A DNA stretch of 27,688 nucleotides from Gemmatimonadota bacterium (GCA_003695865.1 RFGQ01000297.1:1-27688); one strand, 5' to 3'; counted from the stretch's first letter, positions 7,413 through 14,442 are shown. Numbers and translations: made by a program. Notes: generated from the letters alone by a model not told the origin.

Positions 7413-9578
7413 CTATCCTGCCGCCCGCAGTGCTTCCACGTGACGGAGTAGCTCGGACCGCGGAACGCGTGAGAAGCGAAGATCGCCCGTCGAGTCGACG
7501 ATGAAATAGGTCGGAGTCTCCCAACTCCGGAAGGCGTTGTTCACGGCACCGCCCTGGTCGAAGTAAAGGGGTAGGTCGGCATAGCCTTGTCGGCGCAGGT
7601 AGGGGGCGGCGTCCGAGTCGACGGGATCCGCGCTGACGACGACGAGGGGGACCCCCGTGTCTTCGAGTCTCCTTCCCAGCTCGCGCAGCGCAGGCAATTC
7701 CTCGAGGGAGTATCCACAGTAGCGCGACCAGAAAGCGATCACGGCGACCTTTTCTCCGACCAGTTCGCGGAGGCGTGCATGCGTGGAGCCATCCATGGCG
7801 ACCAGGTCGAGAGGGCCGTGCAGGACAGTGCGCTCGGCGAGAGCGTTCGTGTGGCTGATCATCTCGCGTCGCGCCCGGCGGACCTGCACTGCCCAGGCGT
7901 CCGGTCCGAGATACTGCCGCACGGCGTGGATCAGACGGGTCTGCTCCGGGCCGGGCGGCAGGGGATCCGCCGCAAGTCGAGCCACCGGCTCGGCGGCCGT
8001 CACCGTGTCGCCGGCGGAGAGCAGGACCTCGGCGGCCGATGCGAAGACATCTCGATCCCAGACCATCTTCGATGCGAGGAGTAGCGTATCAGCGGCGGCG
8101 GACACTCTACCTGCTGCGAACAGCGCTCTTCCCAGCAGCGCGAGCGTGTGTCCGCGCTCCTCCTGCATGACCCTGGCGAACCGGGATCGGGGGACATCGA
8201 GCGGTCGCGTGGCGTCGTCCGGCGCATGTTCGAGGTCCTCTCGCAACGCGTCCATCGCGCGCGGGGCCCACTCCGGGCGGTCGAGGAGCGTCCGTATCGC
8301 GAGGTCTCGCGTTTCGGGACTCTGTAGGAGCCGAACCGTCCAGCGCGAGACGAGTTCGCTCACCCCCGTTCGCTGGGCCAGTATCAACGCCTGCTGGCCG
8401 ACCACCGGCAAGCGTGACTCGGGTGTCTTCCACATCACCTCGAGCGAATCCAGAGCACGCATCGGTTGGTCCTTCCAGTATAGGCCGAAGATGGTGGCCA
8501 TCCGCTCCTGCACGGCGCGGCGCTCGTTGGGCGCCTCCTTCACCAGCCGACCACGCCAGTACTCGAAGCGGAGCGAATCTCCCACGCCCTGGGCGTACAG
8601 CGTGAGCCCTCGCAGCACCCTTTCCGGCAGCGTGGTCCGGGCCTCATAGCGCACGTGGAGGTCGGCGAACCGCTCGCGGTGACGCGCGAGGAGGGCTTCT
8701 CTCTCCTCGGGAGTGCTGAGCGCGTCTGCGAAGAAGAGGACACTCGACCAGGCGAGCGGGTCGCGAGGGAACAGTTCCGTAGCCCTCAGAGCGGCCTGAT
8801 GGGCTCGGGGGAAGTGGGTCGGTGCCCATTCGGCCTGTTCTGCGTCGAGCGCAGGCAGACCCGGCTTGCTTCCGTCTTCCGAGACCCGCAGGTCCCAGAG
8901 CCTTCCATTGTTGGTATCGATCCGCTCTCCGGTCGTATCCTCGACCGCGAACACACCGTAGGCTGCCTGGGCGGGGAGTTCGAAGCGACCCACGTATACC
9001 CCGTCCCGTCTCGGACGCAGGAGCGCCCATTGTTCGTTGCGGTCCGCCGGGATGCTCGCTCCGCGGATCCTCCCCCGCAGTCGGACTTCGCGGTCTCCGA
9101 CCAGGTGTCCGGCGGGTCGGTAGTGTACTTCGACGACCGTGCCCGCCAGCGGATGGGTCGGCGAGAAGCTGAGAGTGCCCACGCTGGCTGCTGCCGCCGC
9201 CCGGTCCCGCTGAGTTAGGACCAGACCGACCATCGCAAGTGCCAGAGCCACTCCCACCGGGGTGATGATGGCGCTCAAACGCCTGCGGGAGGACGTGTCG
9301 GCCGGCGAGCCCTGAGGCGCATGCACGGCCTGAGGCATGACGACGATGTCTCCCGCACGAAGCCGATCCAGGACGCGGGTGCGGAGCCCGCGCGGGAGCG
9401 CCGGCGGCGGGGTGCTCCGGGCCATCTCGTCGACCTGACGAATCTGACCGAGGGTCCGCCTGCAGCGATCGCACGACATGAGGTGTCGGCTCACCCGGGC
9501 CCGAACCTCTCCGCTCAGCTGGTCGTCCGCGTATTCGGTGAGACGGGAGAAAGACGGGTGAAAGATCGGTCGCCACAT
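7413..9578 (-). CDS. Fusion protein: zinc-binding anti-sigma (ZAS/zf-HC2) domain, one TM helix, beta-sandwich, helical repeats, and a C-terminal TlpA/redoxin-like domain with CxxS
   Basis: H7-x24-H32-x3-C36-x2-C39 at the N-terminus; TM IITPVGVALALAMVGLVL; C-terminal VAVIAFWSRYCGYSLEELPAL...WETPTYFIVDSTG matches the TlpA pattern FWAxWCxPC..E.P.L...P..F.ID..G. The start overlaps the sigma stop (TGATG). Confidence 0.82.
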   Translation of the reverse strand: MWRPIFHPSFSRLTEYADDQLSGEVRARVSRHLMSCDRCRRTLGQIRQVDEMARSTPPPALPRGLRTRVLDRLRAGDIVVMPQAVHAPQGSPADTSSRRRLSAIITPVGVALALAMVGLVLTQRDRAAAAASVGTLSFSPTHPLAGTVVEVHYRPAGHLVGDREVRLRGRIRGASIPADRNEQWALLRPRRDGVYVGRFELPAQAAYGVFAVEDTTGERIDTNNGRLWDLRVSEDGSKPGLPALDAEQAEWAPTHFPRAHQAALRATELFPRDPLAWSSVLFFADALSTPEEREALLARHRERFADLHVRYEARTTLPERVLRGLTLYAQGVGDSLRFEYWRGRLVKEAPNERRAVQERMATIFGLYWKDQPMRALDSLEVMWKTPESRLPVVGQQALILAQRTGVSELVSRWTVRLLQSPETRDLAIRTLLDRPEWAPRAMDALREDLEHAPDDATRPLDVPRSRFARVMQEERGHTLALLGRALFAAGRVSAAADTLLLASKMVWDRDVFASAAEVLLSAGDTVTAAEPVARLAADPLPPGPEQTRLIHAVRQYLGPDAWAVQVRRARREMISHTNALAERTVLHGPLDLVAMDGSTHARLRELVGEKVAVIAFWSRYCGYSLEELPALRELGRRLEDTGVPLVVVSADPVDSDAAPYLRRQGYADLPLYFDQGGAVNNAFRSWETPTYFIVDSTGDLRFSRVPRSELLRHVEALRAAG

Positions 9579-10105
9579 CAGAGTCGATCCTTGAGAAGGC
9601 GGCGCAGAGTCGTGCGGGCCCGACTCAAACGCGCCCGCGACGATGTAACCGAAATGCCCAGCAGTTGTGCGATCTCGTCGTGCGTATACCCCTCCAGCAC
9701 CTTGAGCACGAAGACGGTGCGATACCGGTCGGGGAGGGAGAGGACCGCGTCTTGAATGACGAGGTAGGTCTCGGATTGGGCGGGGGGTGCCGAGCGATCG
9801 ATGACCAGGCCGGTCCTACGAATCCGCATGCGTCGTCCGCGGCGGCGCAGCCGAGCGATGCAATCCCGGGCTGCCGTCGTGCGGAGCCAGCTCAGAAAGG
9901 CTCCTCGATGCGAGTAGGAACGAAGGGCTCTGGGAAGCGAAAGGAAGACATCCTGGACGACGTCTTCGGCCTCATCGGGGCTCGCCAACAGCCGCAGCGC
10001 CAGGGCGAATACCGCGGATGCGTACTCGTCGTAGAGTTGGCCCAGCGCATCGGCCGAGCCGCATCGTGCCTGTTCGATGATGGCGCAGAGCTCATCTGCG
10101 GGCAT
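9578..10105 (-). CDS. ECF (sigma-70 family) RNA polymerase sigma factor
   Basis: Region 2 DALGQLYDEY...AEDVVQDVFL...FLSWL; region 4 LPDRYRTVFVLKVLEGYTHDEIAQLLGIS..SSRARLSRAR. Start is ATG 10105 or GTG 10111. Confidence 0.92.
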   Translation of the reverse strand: MPADELCAIIEQARCGSADALGQLYDEYASAVFALALRLLASPDEAEDVVQDVFLSLPRALRSYSHRGAFLSWLRTTAARDCIARLRRRGRRMRIRRTGLVIDRSAPPAQSETYLVIQDAVLSLPDRYRTVFVLKVLEGYTHDEIAQLLGISVTSSRARLSRARTTLRRLLKDRL

Positions 10106-10157
10106 GCCCACAACGTCGACCCCGGCTCGAGGAACGCCACTTCCTTCGTTCCCAGAA

Positions 10158-10199: not shown

Positions 10200-11564
10200 T
10201 CAGCCTCCCAGTTCGTCGTAGAGGGTGGCGATCGTCCGGATCCCCAGCTCGAACGCCTCCACCGCGAACCACTCGTTGGGCGCGTGCAGGTTGCAGCCGG
10301 GGTACGAGAACCCGATGAGCAGCGCCGGCGCTTCGAGTACGCGCTCGAACTCGCCGACGATGGGGATCGAGCCGCCTTCGCCCACGAGCACCGGGGGTCG
10401 TCCGAAGGCGCGTTCGAGCGCCCGGCGCGCCGCCTGTTCGAGACGTGCGTCGAGCCGGGCCCGCCACGGCCTGCCGCCGTGCAGCTCGTCGACGCGCACC
10501 CTCACACCGGGCGGCGTGACGCGCTCGACGTGGGCGCGGAACAGCTCGCCCACGCGCGCCGGGTCCTGGTCGGGCACCAGTCGGAAGCTGACCTTGGCCG
10601 TGGCCCGCGCGGGCAGCACGGTCTTGGCGCCTTCGCCGGTGTACCCCGAGAGCATGCCGTTGACGTCGCACGTGGGCCGGGACCAGCGCTTCTCGAGCGT
10701 GGAGTAGCCCTCCTCACCGCCCAGCGCCGTCACCCCGATCTCGCGCATGAACCCCTCCTCGTCGAAGGGCAGGCCGCGGATTTCCGCCCGCGTTTCTTCG
10801 TCCCACTCCACCACGTCGTCGTAGAAGCCCTCGATCGCGATGCGGCCGCGCTCGTCGTGCAGCGAGGCGACGATGCGGGCCAGGGCGTTCGCCGGGTTGA
10901 CCACCGGGCCCCCGTATACGCCCGAGTGCAGGTCCGCGTCGGGCCCCTGAACGTGCAACTCGAAGTACGCGAGCCCCCGCAGCGAGTAGAGGATGGACGG
11001 GATACCGGGAGCGAAGAGGCCGGAGTCGGAGATGACCACCGCATCGGCCGCCAGTCGCTCGCGGTTGGCCTCGACGAAGGGCACGAGGTTCGGCGAGCCG
11101 ATCTCCTCCTCACCTTCGGCGATCACCTTGACGTTGACCGGCAGTCGGCCGCGCGCCTTCAGGTGGGCTTCGATCGCCTTGACGTGCAGGTAGAGCTGTC
11201 CCTTGTCGTCGGCGGTGCCCCGGGCGTAGATACGGCCGTCGCGGATCACGGGCTCGAAGGGATCCGATTCCCACTCGTCCAGCGGCTCCACGGGTTGAAC
11301 GTCGTAGTGCCCGTAGACGAGCACGGTGGGTGCGTCGGGTCCGGCTCCGAGCCACTCCCCGTAGACGACCGGATGCCGCGGGGTCTCGCACACCTCGGCT
11401 TCGAGGCCCGCTTCGCGCATGCGCTCGACCAGCCACTCGGCGGCCCGGCGTGTGTCGGCGTCGTGCTCCGACTGGGCGCTGATCGAGGGGATGCGCAGGA
11501 AGTCGAACAGCTCCTCGCGGTAGCGGTCCAGATCGCGGTCGATCGTTGCGGCGACTTCACTCAT
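10200..11564 (-). CDS. M20/M25/M40 family metallo-dipeptidase (ArgE/DapE/CNDP-like)
   Basis: YGHYDVQP, RGTADDKGQ, EGEEEIGS, ISDS and HAPNE metal/catalytic motifs; 454 aa. Confidence 0.95.
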   Translation of the reverse strand: MSEVAATIDRDLDRYREELFDFLRIPSISAQSEHDADTRRAAEWLVERMREAGLEAEVCETPRHPVVYGEWLGAGPDAPTVLVYGHYDVQPVEPLDEWESDPFEPVIRDGRIYARGTADDKGQLYLHVKAIEAHLKARGRLPVNVKVIAEGEEEIGSPNLVPFVEANRERLAADAVVISDSGLFAPGIPSILYSLRGLAYFELHVQGPDADLHSGVYGGPVVNPANALARIVASLHDERGRIAIEGFYDDVVEWDEETRAEIRGLPFDEEGFMREIGVTALGGEEGYSTLEKRWSRPTCDVNGMLSGYTGEGAKTVLPARATAKVSFRLVPDQDPARVGELFRAHVERVTPPGVRVRVDELHGGRPWRARLDARLEQAARRALERAFGRPPVLVGEGGSIPIVGEFERVLEAPALLIGFSYPGCNLHAPNEWFAVEAFELGIRTIATLYDELGG

Positions 11565-11576
11565 GGTGCGACTCCG

Positions 11577-11607
11577 TGAAACCCTCCGTGGGGGTATCCG
11601 TATCTAA
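11577..11607 (+). promoter_or_regulatory. ECF-sigma-type promoter TGAAAC-N16-CGTA(TCTAA)
   Basis: TGAAAC at 11577-11582, exactly 16 nt spacer, CGTA at 11599-11602. Identical to the established B. subtilis SigW consensus. It points into an intergenic region, away from the M20 gene. Confidence 0.6.
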
Positions 11608-11609
11608 CG

Positions 11610-11805
11610 TGTGAGGTGGAAGGATGGGTTGTTGTGAAGACTGGGGAGCCTTCCCGTCGATCGTTCCGGCTGTTGAGCCTGTCGGGGGTTTGGTCACCCC
11701 CTAGATGAGCGGATCCACTTCAAGATCCTCTCGAAGTTCCTTCGAGCTTCCGAGGGGTGGACGGAAAAGGCGGCGGTCCGGAGTTTCGGGCCGCCGCCTG
11801 TCGTT
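11610..11805 (+). ncRNA. Candidate ~190-nt structured sRNA (a 26-aa small ORF at 11624-11704 is an alternative reading)
   Basis: Bounded by the ECF promoter and a terminator hairpin. GU-rich 5' segment, hairpins GGGGGT/ACCCCC (11684-11701) and CTCGAAG/CTTCGAG (11730-11746), the latter enclosed by TCCAC/GTGGA. No recognisable Rfam family by eye. Confidence 0.45.
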
Positions 11806-11806
11806 T
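11765..11806. terminator. Probable bidirectional intrinsic terminator
   Basis: 13-bp stem AGGCGGCGGTCCG/CGGGCCGCCGCCT (11768-11799; one G-U pair on the + strand, a C-A mismatch on the - strand). AAAA on the left gives a U-tract for the - strand GlsB gene; GTCGTTT follows on the right. Confidence 0.7.
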
Positions 11807-11864
11807 GTCGATCGTCTTCGTGCCGGGCTTCGGGGCCCGCACGGCACGCCCCGTGCGCGGCCCG

Positions 11865-12143
11865 CTACAGCATGGAGCGGATGCCCCACCGGTAGATGAA
11901 CGTCATCAGGACCGACAGAACGGCAGCACCCGCCATGCCGCCGACCGAAAGCGCCACGGGCTCGTAGAACTCGAAGATCCCGACGCCGAGCATACCGCCG
12001 ATCACGGCTCCGAACGCGCCGAGCACCATGATGATCGGGACGTGCCCGGGCTGCTCTTCCGGTCGCTTGATCATGGCGCGCATCGTGAGCCCGATGACGC
12101 CCCCCATCACGATCCAGATAGCGATTCCGATCCAGTTCTCCAT
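11865..12143 (-). CDS. GlsB/YeaQ/YmgE (transglycosylase-associated) family stress-response membrane protein
   Basis: 92 aa, three Gly-rich hydrophobic helices (WIVMGGVIG...IMVLGAFGAVIGGMLG...GMAGAAVLSVL). Start placed at ATG 12143. Confidence 0.8.
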   Translation of the reverse strand: MENWIGIAIWIVMGGVIGLTMRAMIKRPEEQPGHVPIIMVLGAFGAVIGGMLGVGIFEFYEPVALSVGGMAGAAVLSVLMTFIYRWGIRSML

Positions 12144-12344
12144 TGCCCTGCGGTTCCCGCTCCGGGGTCCAAGATTGTGACGGCTCACGAATCTATCGGA
12201 GGAACCCGCCGACCGCTACGGGTGCCGGGACGCCCCCGGCGTTGACCCCCCGTCTGTGCGCGTCTACCCTGAGTGGAGCCTGCTTCGGCCCGGGGTCTGC
12301 CATGGTCGGCGCCGGGTGTGCCCCGCACGAAACGGTTGCGAGCC

Positions 12345-12998
12345 TTGAGCGACGACATCATCGATCTCACCTCGTACATCCAGCGGCGTGAGGAACAGGT
12401 CCGGGACGGCGAGCAGGAGCACGCCGACGGTCGCTCGTTCTTCTCGATCTGGGGCGGGGAGGGCGAGCGGTCTCGCTTCGCGCTGCCTCTGTGGCGATCG
12501 GTCTATCTCGCCGGCTGTCGGCGGGGGGCGTTGCTGTCGCGCCGGACCGGTGCGCGGGAGCTCGAGCCGCTCTTCGTGCTGGATCTGGGCGCCGAAGAGC
12601 CCCGCCTGAGCTTCGACGACGACGCGATCGACCCGCGGGCCGTGGAGCGTCACCCCTCGATCACCGAGACCGACGAGGGGGTCGTCGTGCACCTCGGGGT
12701 GCACCGCAATCACGAGTGGTTCATGCTGCTCGACGACCGGGCTCCCGATGCCGAACCCCTCGCCGAGCGAGCCCGAACGGACATCATGTTCCTCGCTGGA
12801 GAGTGCGCGGCTCTGGTGACGTTCTGGGGGCTCGATGGCCGCCCGGCCGGTGGGATCGCCGGGCTGCAGGGACCCGCGGTGGTCTACGAGGAAGCCGGCG
12901 AGGGGAGTGACGGAGGAGACGAAAAGGCACGCGGCGGGGGCGAGGATGGCCCGCCGACGAGCGTGTCCGACGATCCGACCGGAGAGGACCGCTCCTGA
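12345..12998 (+). CDS. Hypothetical protein
   Basis: GC3-rich coding frame with a globular-looking core (IIDLTSYIQRR...RSRFALPLWRSVYL...FLAGECAAL) and a low-complexity tail. Start uncertain (TTG 12345; track 12273). No family recognised. Confidence 0.65.
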   Translation: MSDDIIDLTSYIQRREEQVRDGEQEHADGRSFFSIWGGEGERSRFALPLWRSVYLAGCRRGALLSRRTGARELEPLFVLDLGAEEPRLSFDDDAIDPRAVERHPSITETDEGVVVHLGVHRNHEWFMLLDDRAPDAEPLAERARTDIMFLAGECAALVTFWGLDGRPAGGIAGLQGPAVVYEEAGEGSDGGDEKARGGGEDGPPTSVSDDPTGEDRS

Positions 12999-13023: not shown

Positions 13024-13683
13024 CTACCCGTCCTTGCCCATCGCCCGCTTGAGCGCCTCGAGGCGGGCGTCGACATCCATCTCGGGGGCGGGAGAGGGTG
13101 GTTCCGCGTCGGGTCCGAACTCGTCGAAGAGCGCGTCGACCTCTCGCTCGGCCGCGGTGCGGTCGTCGGCGGAGCCCATCTTCTCGGCCATGCGGTCGAG
13201 CTCGGCGAACAGGTCGTCCGCCGCCGAGACGGCCTCGCGCGCGTCCGTGCGTCCGGCCTGCGCGGCGAGGATGTCCCTGTTGCTCTGCGCTTTCTTGAGG
13301 GCCTGGAGCATCTCCTGGACTTCGGCGCGGCGCACGGTGAGTTCCTCTTCGAAGGCCACGACCTTGTGACGGAAGGCCTCGAGACGGCGCTCGTGACGCT
13401 CGGCGTATTCGAGGGCGATGCGCACGGTCTCTTCGTCGCCGATGTCGCGCGCGAGGGTTTCGCGGCGCCGGCAGGTGGCGAGCTGGCGCTCTTCCTCCTC
13501 GACCAGCGCACGGGCCTTGGCCAGATCCTCTTCGAGCTTGCGCACCTGGGCCTGCGCGTCGGTGACCTCGTCGCGCATGCCCGCGAGGAGCCTGTTCACG
13601 GCCTCGGGCACGTCGTCCCGGCCCAGCTCCTCTTTGAAGTTGTCGACCGCCTCGCGGAACGCGCGGCGAAGGTTCTCGAACAT
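13024..13683 (-). CDS. pspA: PspA/IM30 (Vipp1/ESCRT-III-like) family protein
   Basis: 219-aa all-helical coiled coil with the ARDIGDEETVRIAL segment (cf. A...G.E.LA..AL) and the C-terminal VDARLEALKRAMG typical of PspA. Confidence 0.8.
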   Translation of the reverse strand: MFENLRRAFREAVDNFKEELGRDDVPEAVNRLLAGMRDEVTDAQAQVRKLEEDLAKARALVEEEERQLATCRRRETLARDIGDEETVRIALEYAERHERRLEAFRHKVVAFEEELTVRRAEVQEMLQALKKAQSNRDILAAQAGRTDAREAVSAADDLFAELDRMAEKMGSADDRTAAEREVDALFDEFGPDAEPPSPAPEMDVDARLEALKRAMGKDG

Positions 13684-13697
13684 GGCTCCGGCCGCCC

Positions 13698-14303
13698 TCA
13701 GTTCAGGTAGGGCTCGATCCTCTGCGCGAAGGAGTTACGGGCTCGGTGCAGTCGACTCTTCACGGTGCCGAGGTTGACGCCCGTGATCTCGGCGATCTCC
13801 TCGTAGCTCTTGCCTTCGAGTTCCCGCAGCCGGAACACGAGCTGATGATGCTCGGGCAGCGTGCGGACCGTGTCTTCGACCAGCCGGCGCAGGAAACGCT
13901 TCCGGTACAGGTCGTCGGGAGACATGCGGTTGTCCTCGAACTGGATGGGCCGGTGGTCGTCGTCCCAGCCGCCGGTCAGCTTCTGGAAGAGCACGAGCGG
14001 GCTCCGAGAGCGGTTCCGCAACTCGTTCTTCGAGAGGTTGCTGGCGATCGTGTAGACCCACGTCGAGAACTTCTTGTCGGTGTCGAAGCGATGCAGGTGG
14101 CGCGTCACCCGGATGAACGCCTCCTGCACCAAGTCCTGCGCCCGGTCCGGGTCGCCGGTCTTGCGCGCGATGAAGTGGATCAACCGATCCCGGTAGCGCT
14201 CGTAGAGCTCGGGGAACGCTCCCCGCCGCCCCTCGAGGTGGGCTTCCACCAACTCCTCGTCGGTGAGCGACGGAAGCGGGCGCTTCTCGGTCTGGTCGCT
14301 CAC
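13698..14303 (-). CDS. ECF sigma factor, RpoE/SigW-like
   Basis: TDEELV...AFPELYERY...AQDLVQEAFIRV...FDTDKKFSTWVYTIASN...LPEHHQLVFRLRELEGKSYEEIAEITGVNLGTVKSRLHRAR. Start placed at GTG 14303 after TGGGGG; track start 14519 overlaps the E1-alpha gene. Confidence 0.93.
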   Translation of the reverse strand: MSDQTEKRPLPSLTDEELVEAHLEGRRGAFPELYERYRDRLIHFIARKTGDPDRAQDLVQEAFIRVTRHLHRFDTDKKFSTWVYTIASNLSKNELRNRSRSPLVLFQKLTGGWDDDHRPIQFEDNRMSPDDLYRKRFLRRLVEDTVRTLPEHHQLVFRLRELEGKSYEEIAEITGVNLGTVKSRLHRARNSFAQRIEPYLN

Positions 14304-14315
14304 GAATCCCCCAAT

Positions 14316-14330
14316 CAAGAATGATTCTTG
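14316..14330. promoter_or_regulatory. AT-rich 7-1-7 palindrome CAAGAAT-G-ATTCTTG in the sigma leader; candidate operator
   Basis: Perfect inverted repeat read directly. It is overlapped by a second dyad, AATCA-agaa-TGATT (14313-14326), and lies 13-27 nt upstream of the start codon. Confidence 0.45.
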
Positions 14331-14358
14331 TTTTCGACACCTCAATATGGCCGTTCCA
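14331..14358 (-). promoter_or_regulatory. Candidate ECF-type (autoregulatory) promoter TGGAAC-N16-CGAAAA
   Basis: On the - strand: TGGAAC at 14358-14353, 16-nt spacer, CGAA at 14336-14333. ECF promoters commonly have AAC at -35 and CGT/CGA at -10. Confidence 0.4.
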
Positions 14359-14442
14359 CTGGCGGGAGACAAGCGAACGGTCGGACGTGAGCGCATGGCG
14401 GCCGGGCCGCCGACCGAGGCCGCATTTCGCCGACGTTTCGCC

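Follow-up and report, generated by a model that had tools for sequence, protein, structure and literature searches.

What is encoded in an intergenic spacer whose plus strand opens with a letter-perfect extracytoplasmic function (ECF) promoter and continues into a series of stable hairpins? The spacer (11565–11864) lies in a 27,688-nt stretch of DNA, here called the window, in which positions are counted 5′ to 3′ and the plus strand is the strand shown. The window is a 27.7-kb contig of the metagenome-assembled genome (MAG) of a Gemmatimonadota bacterium (GCA_003695865.1; 3.18 Mb in 831 contigs, 88% complete, about 68% G+C), and the spacer separates two minus-strand genes, one for an M20-family dipeptidase and one for a small membrane protein. 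A sequence-only reading had proposed that an undescribed, ECF-controlled small RNA (sRNA) is transcribed from the plus strand. Conservation in relatives, covariation, strand-specific G-U pairs and the absence of an Rfam match all support that proposal, and we consider it probable that positions 11609 to about 11808 on the plus strand are a stand-alone, non-coding RNA gene driven by the ECF promoter.

Promoter, fold and RNA family

The predicted gene has the following parts, all on the plus strand.

11577–11582, plus strand: −35 box TGAAAC of the ECF-type promoter, read directly; the motif is enriched genome-wide and an equivalent box lies upstream of the RNA in relatives
11599–11602, plus strand: −10 box CGTA, read directly, 16 nt past the −35 box
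11609–11808, plus strand: predicted sRNA of about 200 nt (fold z = −3.85; match to covariance model R1 at 11638–11808)
11609–11665, plus strand: variable 5′ domain, differing in sequence and length among relatives and containing the GU-rich stretch and the start of an open reading frame (ORF)
11626–11639, plus strand: GU-rich stretch GGGTTGTTGTGAAG, read directly, inside the variable 5′ domain
11612–11722, plus strand: predicted long-range helix P1 (11612–11620 with 11714–11722), enclosing a 5′ hairpin, P2 and P3 in minimum-energy folds
11668–11679, plus strand: predicted hairpin P2, GGCU GUUG AGCC, from the fold, shifted in position against the family consensus
11684–11701, plus strand: predicted hairpin P3, GGGGG/CCCCC with loop UUUGGUCA, its UGGUCA core at 11691–11696
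11727–11757, plus strand: predicted hairpin P4, from the fold, with changes on both sides at 8 of 8 pairs in the family
11768–11809, plus strand: predicted intrinsic terminator with an interrupted U tail and a 14-bp G+C stem at 11768–11799

The promoter TGAAAC-N16-CGTA stands at 11577–11602 exactly as the sequence-only reading had it, and it is identical, letter for letter, to the consensus of the SigW regulon promoters in Bacillus subtilis. The motif occurs above chance. The window contains GAAAC-N15-18-CGTA once, where 0.15 occurrences are expected, and the whole genome contains 10 sites of the form TGAAAC-N16/17-CGTA and 27 of the form GAAAC-N16/17-CGTA (0 and 5, respectively, for the reversed controls). 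These sites are mostly intergenic and precede co-oriented genes, including those for a TolC-like outer-membrane efflux protein, two PadR regulators, a TetR regulator, a DUF5916/CBM9 secreted protein, small membrane proteins and an anti-sigma factor. Because transcription from ECF promoters usually starts 5–8 nt past the −10 box, the predicted sRNA would begin at about 11608–11611.

Downstream of the promoter, the stable hairpins noticed at first sight were borne out by calculation: a 204-nt plus-strand RNA folds at −97.3 kcal/mol, and none of 200 shuffled sequences was as stable (z = −3.85). In minimum-energy folds of the window RNA and of its counterpart in the nearest genus, P1 closes a multiloop around P2 and P3. 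We rejected P1 as a family-wide helix between the 5′ domain and the linker after P3, as its duplex test was no better than shuffled controls. The terminator stem (11768–11799) has 14 pairs, 11 of them G-C and one a U-G that becomes C·A on the minus strand, and is followed by GTCGTTTGTC.

Homologues were located through synteny, after DNA and peptide searches had given none; a BLAST-type DNA search of relatives with the spacer returned no useful match. The M20 gene was found in 142 of the 151 genomes of one Gemmatimonadota family (about 60–74% identity), and the small membrane-protein gene lies just upstream of it on the same strand in 29 of 30 fetched loci, the window's own included. Among 28 relatives compared, most have an intergenic spacer of only −4 to about 114 nt here, and because it is so short the two genes look co-transcribed. 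Eight of the 28 have a spacer of 277–534 nt and these are the ones holding the element, while one further relative has a 979-nt spacer with an unrelated ORF. The long spacers carry, on the strand opposite to the genes, an ECF-type promoter, a common set of hairpins and a terminator with a U tail. The window RNA has the same position, between the small membrane-protein gene and M20 and antisense to both.

We aligned 20 sequences by hand (alignment A3) to define a 3′ domain composed of P2, P3, P4 and the terminator, which is the domain modeled by R1. The family consensus is GUUCGG/CCGAAC with loop CGCGUAAU for P2, GGAGGGG/CCUCUCC with loop CUGGUCA for P3 and CUCCACGG/CCGUGGGG with loop GGUGCCU for P4. 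All pairs of P2 show changes on both sides, and the P3 stem covaries at 7 of 7 pairs, its variants including GGAGGGG, GGGGUGGC, GAGGCC, CGAGGG and GACGGUGG. Within this changing stem, the loop bases UGGUCA are kept in 33 of 34 members, and the window accordingly reads GGGGG-UUUGGUCA-CCCCC. The most conserved hairpin, searched as the word GAGRGGCTGGTCACCTCTC, occurs in 19 records of a species-genome collection, about 15 of them Gemmatimonadota MAGs, and this result places the window in that phylum. Members differ in the sequence and length of the 5′ domain, which is all but missing from one of them.

Covariation in this domain is well above its controls. Of the cells in the hand alignment 90% form pairs, and its covariation score was attained by 0 of 500 shuffles. 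The covariance-model alignment, with 36 distinct sequences, has 94% pairing cells, changes on both sides at 28 of its 32 pairs and a covariation score of 0.42 (0.04–0.14 for slid-partner controls); this second alignment is biased towards the model's own structure, which counts against leaning on it, but the hand alignment agrees. Conservation of promoter and hairpins in relatives had been set beforehand as the test of the proposal, and the result favours it, given these covarying pairs and a promoter ahead of the RNA in 27 of 33 loci. The structure also has a strand. At three positions of the terminator, and at one in each of P3 and P4, G-U outnumbers every other pair, and because such conserved G-U pairs turn into A·C mismatches on the opposite strand, the structure can be assigned to the plus strand.

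The R1 model matches 37 of the 151 family genomes, in 28 of 81 genera, and nearly all strong matches adjoin M20. The window match (11638–11808) extends over the full model length as a single copy, with 54.1 bits and E = 6.4e-11 in a search of the whole genome, a score that is partly circular, as the window sequence is one of the 20 behind R1. By comparison, scores are 68–70 bits in the nearest genus and reach 135 bits among members that were left out of model building. Among 150 sampled genomes of the phylum, those outside the family gave only weak R1 matches (E of 5e-6 or weaker), which are probably terminators. As far as searched, the RNA family thus appears confined to part of one Gemmatimonadota family. 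Two copies stand away from the usual place: one relative has a second copy (62 bits; L133, G081:C35) between a histidine-kinase gene and an endonuclease/exonuclease/phosphatase-family gene, and one member (L113, G021:C467) adjoins a LuxR-type response-regulator gene in place of M20. The surroundings of both are uninformative.

The scattered presence of the RNA was set against an M20 protein tree (46 rows, after removal of duplicates and of loci whose alignment had fewer than 330 residues; the 'none' of G062 is a truncated-locus artefact). On its well-supported branches, no fewer than 6 changes are required to explain presence and absence. With all copies homologous and at one locus, the simplest reading is an old gene that was repeatedly and cleanly lost.

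No known RNA family accounts for the element. Rfam, with the 6S model RF00013 and its variants included, gave no match in the window at gathering score and none in seven loci at E ≤ 1, its sole match elsewhere being a chance-level NiCo. Moreover, the predicted structure is multi-hairpin, and not the rod with a central bubble of 6S RNA. Nor is it a sponge of the CsrB/RsmZ type: the conserved loops UGGUCA, GGUGCCU and CGCGUAAU contain no GGA. In the literature searched, we found no paper on Gemmatimonadota sRNAs or regulatory RNA.

The locus and its sigma factors

We found a motif of the form G[AC]AAC-N15-17-CGT[AC] within 300 nt upstream of the core, on the RNA strand, at those 27 loci, and at 0 loci on the other strand. 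Eleven loci have tandem promoters, a distal GAAAC-N16-CGTA and a proximal GCAACC-N16-CGTC(A/T)T, while the window, the nearest genus and one further genome (G060) have the GAAAC type only. The genes around the window promoter are as follows.

10200–11564, minus strand: M20-family dipeptidase gene, divergent from the RNA (Pfam M20; NCBIfam dipeptidase PRK08201, 576 bits), its start codon 12 nt from the −35 box of the RNA promoter
11865–12188, minus strand: small membrane-protein gene, convergent with the RNA, up to 107 aa, syntenic across the family
9578–10111, minus strand: local ECF sigma gene downstream of M20, paired with the anti-sigma gene at 7413–9578
13698–14303, minus strand: conserved ECF sigma gene of the locus, about 85% identical across the family

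The sequence-only reading had placed a SigW/RpoE-like sigma, pspA and a GlsB/YeaQ gene within 2.7 kb of the promoter. Two ECF sigma genes are indeed there, but the other names did not hold: the coiled-coil protein at 13024–13683 has no PspA match and the small membrane protein has no named family and no GlsB/YeaQ match, in Pfam or NCBIfam. The same reading's statement that the next gene is convergent was correct, the membrane-protein gene having its stop at 11865.

Neither local sigma is a good candidate for driving the RNA. The sigma/anti-sigma pair at 7413–10111 follows M20 in this genome only, among 30 loci compared, and looks like a lineage-specific insertion into a conserved block; we rejected its sigma because it is syntenic in this genome only. 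The anti-sigma protein itself has 721 aa and an AhpC/TSA-like domain. The conserved sigma at 13698–14303 is probably not the driver either, having a conserved sigma-70-type promoter upstream (TTGNCN-N17-CATATT) and no ECF box. That promoter is followed by a conserved TTTTAAACTCAAAAT-like stretch, and no recognisable anti-sigma gene was found at the locus.

The same genome encodes a third ECF sigma, on contig C421, with a zf-HC2 anti-sigma gene next behind it; GAAAC-N17-CGTA occurs ahead of the start of this sigma gene and again immediately past its stop. Orthologues of this sigma are single-copy in 131 of the 151 family genomes, and of 30 compared, 26 have the motif after the sigma stop and 12 have it ahead of the sigma gene. 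On the NCBI SigW models the C421 sigma scores 168 and 151 bits, well above both local sigmas and yet below the cut-offs of 209 and 243 bits, respectively, which makes it SigW-like and not an orthologue of SigW. Because its own operon carries GAAAC-N17-CGTA, the SigW-like sigma on C421 is the likeliest driver of the RNA, ahead of either window sigma. The SigW-type label given to the promoter at first reading thus fits, with its exact boxes and 16-nt spacer, but the sigma it should be linked to is this one and neither local one.

The box ahead of the zf-HC2 anti-sigma gene (L011:233–259, minus strand of C421; orthologues L138–L166) would be a sigma-dependent internal promoter for the anti-sigma factor and would give the system a built-in negative feedback. 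On another contig of the same genome (C114, 17–78; L005), GAAACC-N15-CGTA and GCAACC-N16-CGTC stand in tandem, 36 nt apart, before a secreted DUF5916/CBM9 gene, in the same two-promoter layout that relatives have ahead of the sRNA. In five relatives, GCAACC..CGTC sites precede PadR genes and a small conserved protein.

The block conserved across the family comprises the sigma at 13698–14303, its coiled-coil partner, the ORF at 12273–12998, the membrane protein and M20 (window 13024–14400 compared with relatives L075, L080 and L082–L091). The ORF (241 aa, plus strand) is oriented opposite to the block and has a gene-like codon bias and no Pfam or NCBIfam match; it recurs in the same place and orientation in most relatives, at 35–44% identity.

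How the RNA may act

Under stress, the SigW-like sigma of C421 would transcribe the RNA from the single window promoter, and the RNA would then be the non-coding arm of an envelope-type stress regulon. By analogy with known systems, it could supply the repressor arm for a sigma that can only activate. The RNA would act in trans, without Hfq or ProQ, through fast base pairing that nucleates at the invariant P3 loop, (C/U)UGGUCA, with UGACCA-containing RNAs as its partners. We favour this mode of action because the 7–8-nt P3 loop is the only invariant unpaired element and its first four bases (CUGG; UUGG in the window) fit YUNR, the U-turn motif typical of antisense recognition loops; even so, we hold pairing from the P3 loop only tentatively, at somewhat less than an even chance. 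The GcvB-like, GU-rich seed imagined by the sequence-only reading has to be given up, for the GU-rich stretch sits in the variable 5′ domain and is not conserved.

Three other roles for parts of the RNA were rejected. G-rich 5′ motifs (GGGUUGGGA and others) as G-quadruplexes or CsrA sites are not universal and the distribution of CsrA does not fit. The 3′ arm of P3 as an anti-Shine-Dalgarno mimic (UCACCUCUCC is like the 16S 3′ end) is contradicted by the free covariation of that arm. Feedback of the loop on the mRNA of the SigW-like sigma and its anti-sigma was dismissed because none of the 30 orthologues has UGACCA in the sigma gene or its leader; downstream of the sigma stop codon, the 30 orthologues have three scattered matches only.

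The comparison with known ECF-dependent sRNAs shows both likeness and difference. MicA, RybB (PMC1804206) and MicL (PMC4102768) are sigmaE-dependent, Hfq-dependent sRNAs of enterobacteria, and like them the predicted RNA is small and non-coding, with its own ECF-type promoter and an intrinsic terminator in a diderm host. Unlike them, it is about twice as long and does not match their Rfam models, it often has two tandem ECF promoters, its proposed seed is a hairpin loop instead of a single-stranded 5′ end, and no Hfq was found here. FoxI and FoxJ of Fusobacterium nucleatum are sigmaE-dependent sRNAs (PMC9546586, PMC11005410) from a phylum without Hfq, ProQ and CsrA (PMC11039985). They share with the predicted RNA an origin far outside the Proteobacteria and, as proposed here, an ECF-type control, and the Fox pair shows that the design of sigmaE plus sRNA works without classical chaperones; their sequence is unrelated, and their transcripts and targets were measured, whereas the Gemmatimonadota RNA is known from sequence comparison. 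In Fusobacterium, KhpA and KhpB are the major sRNA binders, while searches of five Gemmatimonadota genomes found no Hfq, ProQ or KhpB (Jag), and for KhpA only weak KH matches, below the cut-off and within open frames of about 560–740 aa. CsrA is present in two of the five and was not found in G079, which has the RNA. Taken as a whole, the RNA family appears uncatalogued, akin in kind to ECF-dependent sRNAs and in none of their sequence families.

Public RNA data are consistent with an abundant RNA of sRNA size in relatives. The conserved core of a relative occurs in 13 RNA-labelled runs, which come from 7 studies and sample sediment, seawater, estuary, marine and soil sites. The relatives' core is covered by contigs of 104–260 nt in four studies and by a further contig of 472 nt; one of 126 nt is exactly the core, and those of 223 and 248 nt begin in the terminator and extend 130–160 nt into the G-rich 5′ domain.

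Several observations weigh against the reading set out here. These contigs are silent on strand, start and end, and RNA libraries can carry DNA. The window's own DNA appears in none of the RNA runs, its only full match being a hot-spring metagenome that may be where it came from, and the window copy is a divergent family member (54 bits versus 120–140 for the core group). As for the regulator, the window promoter has a 16-nt spacer versus 17 nt in the promoters of the C421 sigma itself, which in this respect differ from SigW promoters too. In most relatives the promoter nearest the RNA is of the GCAAC..CGTC type, which is not enriched in this genome, and no sigma gene stands behind any of 26 GCAACC..CGTC sites in five genomes. 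As for targets, UGACCA is not enriched near start codons (66 observed, 63 expected), and a target search in the genome gave uninformative seed-extension and duplex rankings. Two proteins with signal peptides and a likely RsgA rank high by seed extension, though not significantly.

The same target counts lend some weight to a different function, in which the RNA mainly binds a protein such as a chaperone, nuclease or regulator, or acts as a decoy, and the loops UGGUCA, GGUGCCU and CGCGUAAU are protein recognition sites and not mRNA seeds. Six strictly conserved loop bases with variable flanks are short for an mRNA seed, conserved loops are present on three hairpins, UGACCA lacks enrichment near start codons and no known sRNA chaperone was found in the five genomes. 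We consider protein binding unlikely, though the best placed of the alternatives: no candidate protein partner co-occurs with it, one genome that carries the RNA yielded no CsrA, the loops lack the GGA bound by CsrA, and the YUNR fit is typical of RNA-RNA recognition.

Could the RNA matter only to the genes beside it? Its promoter abuts the M20 start codon and its terminator the stop of the membrane-protein gene, and transcription from the ECF promoter might repress or uncouple these two genes in cis, by promoter occlusion, polymerase collision or antisense pairing with read-through. The RNA keeps its place between two genes that are directly adjacent, and probably co-transcribed, wherever it is missing; the 12 nt from the M20 ATG to the −35 box mean that any M20 promoter in the window overlaps the RNA promoter or 5′ end; and two further RNA contigs run from the core into the end of the membrane-protein gene. 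In spite of this, an effect in cis seems to us decidedly unlikely, more so than protein binding. Pure antisense action needs no conserved hairpins, covarying stems or invariant loop, the gene order of the whole locus is kept anyway so that position may be inheritance only, and one genome has a second copy elsewhere while one member stands in another context. In addition, several relatives have a separate M20 promoter that does not overlap.

That promoter is sigma-70-like, TTGAGG-N18-TACATT, and lies 50–64 nt upstream of the M20 start (L075, L080, L089, L094 and L100), on the M20 side of the sRNA's distal ECF promoter. In the window it would not fit, and a minus-strand TAGATA overlaps the −10 box and start region of the sRNA. 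A minus-strand TGACCA was rejected on inspection as the −35 box of an M20 promoter, there being no −10 box at the right distance.

The ECF promoter might instead drive a small protein. A 26-codon ORF (MGCCEDWGAFPSIVPAVEPVGGLVTP, plus strand, 11624–11704) has a Shine-Dalgarno-like GAGGTGG upstream and its ATG 15 nt past the inferred start, and a short ORF beginning MG occupies the corresponding place in the nearest genus. The claim that the plus strand holds no convincing protein gene therefore needs this ORF added to it, but it stands as far as conservation goes. A search of 150 family genomes with the peptide gave no match (best E = 0.17). Between the 26-aa ORF of the window and the 18-aa one of the nearest genus only the first two residues agree, several members have no ATG, and no ORF is conserved across the family loci when the window ORF and relatives are compared. 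Conservation resides in the stems and loops of the RNA past the point where the ORF begins, and the changes there are compensatory; a coding function is highly improbable.

Least plausible is a spacer with no separate gene, made up of the convergent gene's terminator, chance folds of G+C-rich sequence and a coincidental promoter match: the terminator hairpin is also good on the minus strand (11 of 12 pairs, then UUUU, a plausible terminator for the convergent gene too), and the minus strand of the spacer also folds below its shuffles (z = −2.4), but most relatives have no such spacer, the stems covary and contain G-U pairs that mismatch on the minus strand, the ECF boxes occur on one strand only and sRNA-sized RNA contigs exist, and on these comparative data we regard this very improbable reading as already contradicted.

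Implications for the Gemmatimonadota

A stand-alone RNA gene under ECF control remains our preferred reading, and its reach is limited, the RNA being restricted to part of one family of mostly uncultured bacteria. The Gemmatimonadota as a whole are abundant in soils and sediments. The analysis provides experimental handles in the form of a six-base loop core, a promoter pair, a candidate sigma, a covariance model and a partial list of regulon promoters.

More speculatively, and with rather less confidence than we place in loop pairing by itself, this could be the first regulatory RNA of the Gemmatimonadota: an old gene, repeatedly lost, that is controlled by two ECF sigmas through tandem promoters and that silences a few envelope and transport mRNAs in stress through chaperone-free kissing of UGGUCA. 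ECF-dependent sRNAs are textbook matter in the envelope stress of enterobacteria and a recent finding in Fusobacterium. If the reading is true, the design of an activating ECF sigma with a repressing sRNA would reach one more deep-branching phylum of diderms, there with an RNA of different mechanics. A third, unrelated case, in genomes where no Hfq, ProQ or KhpB was found, would argue that the circuit of sigma plus sRNA is a recurrent solution.

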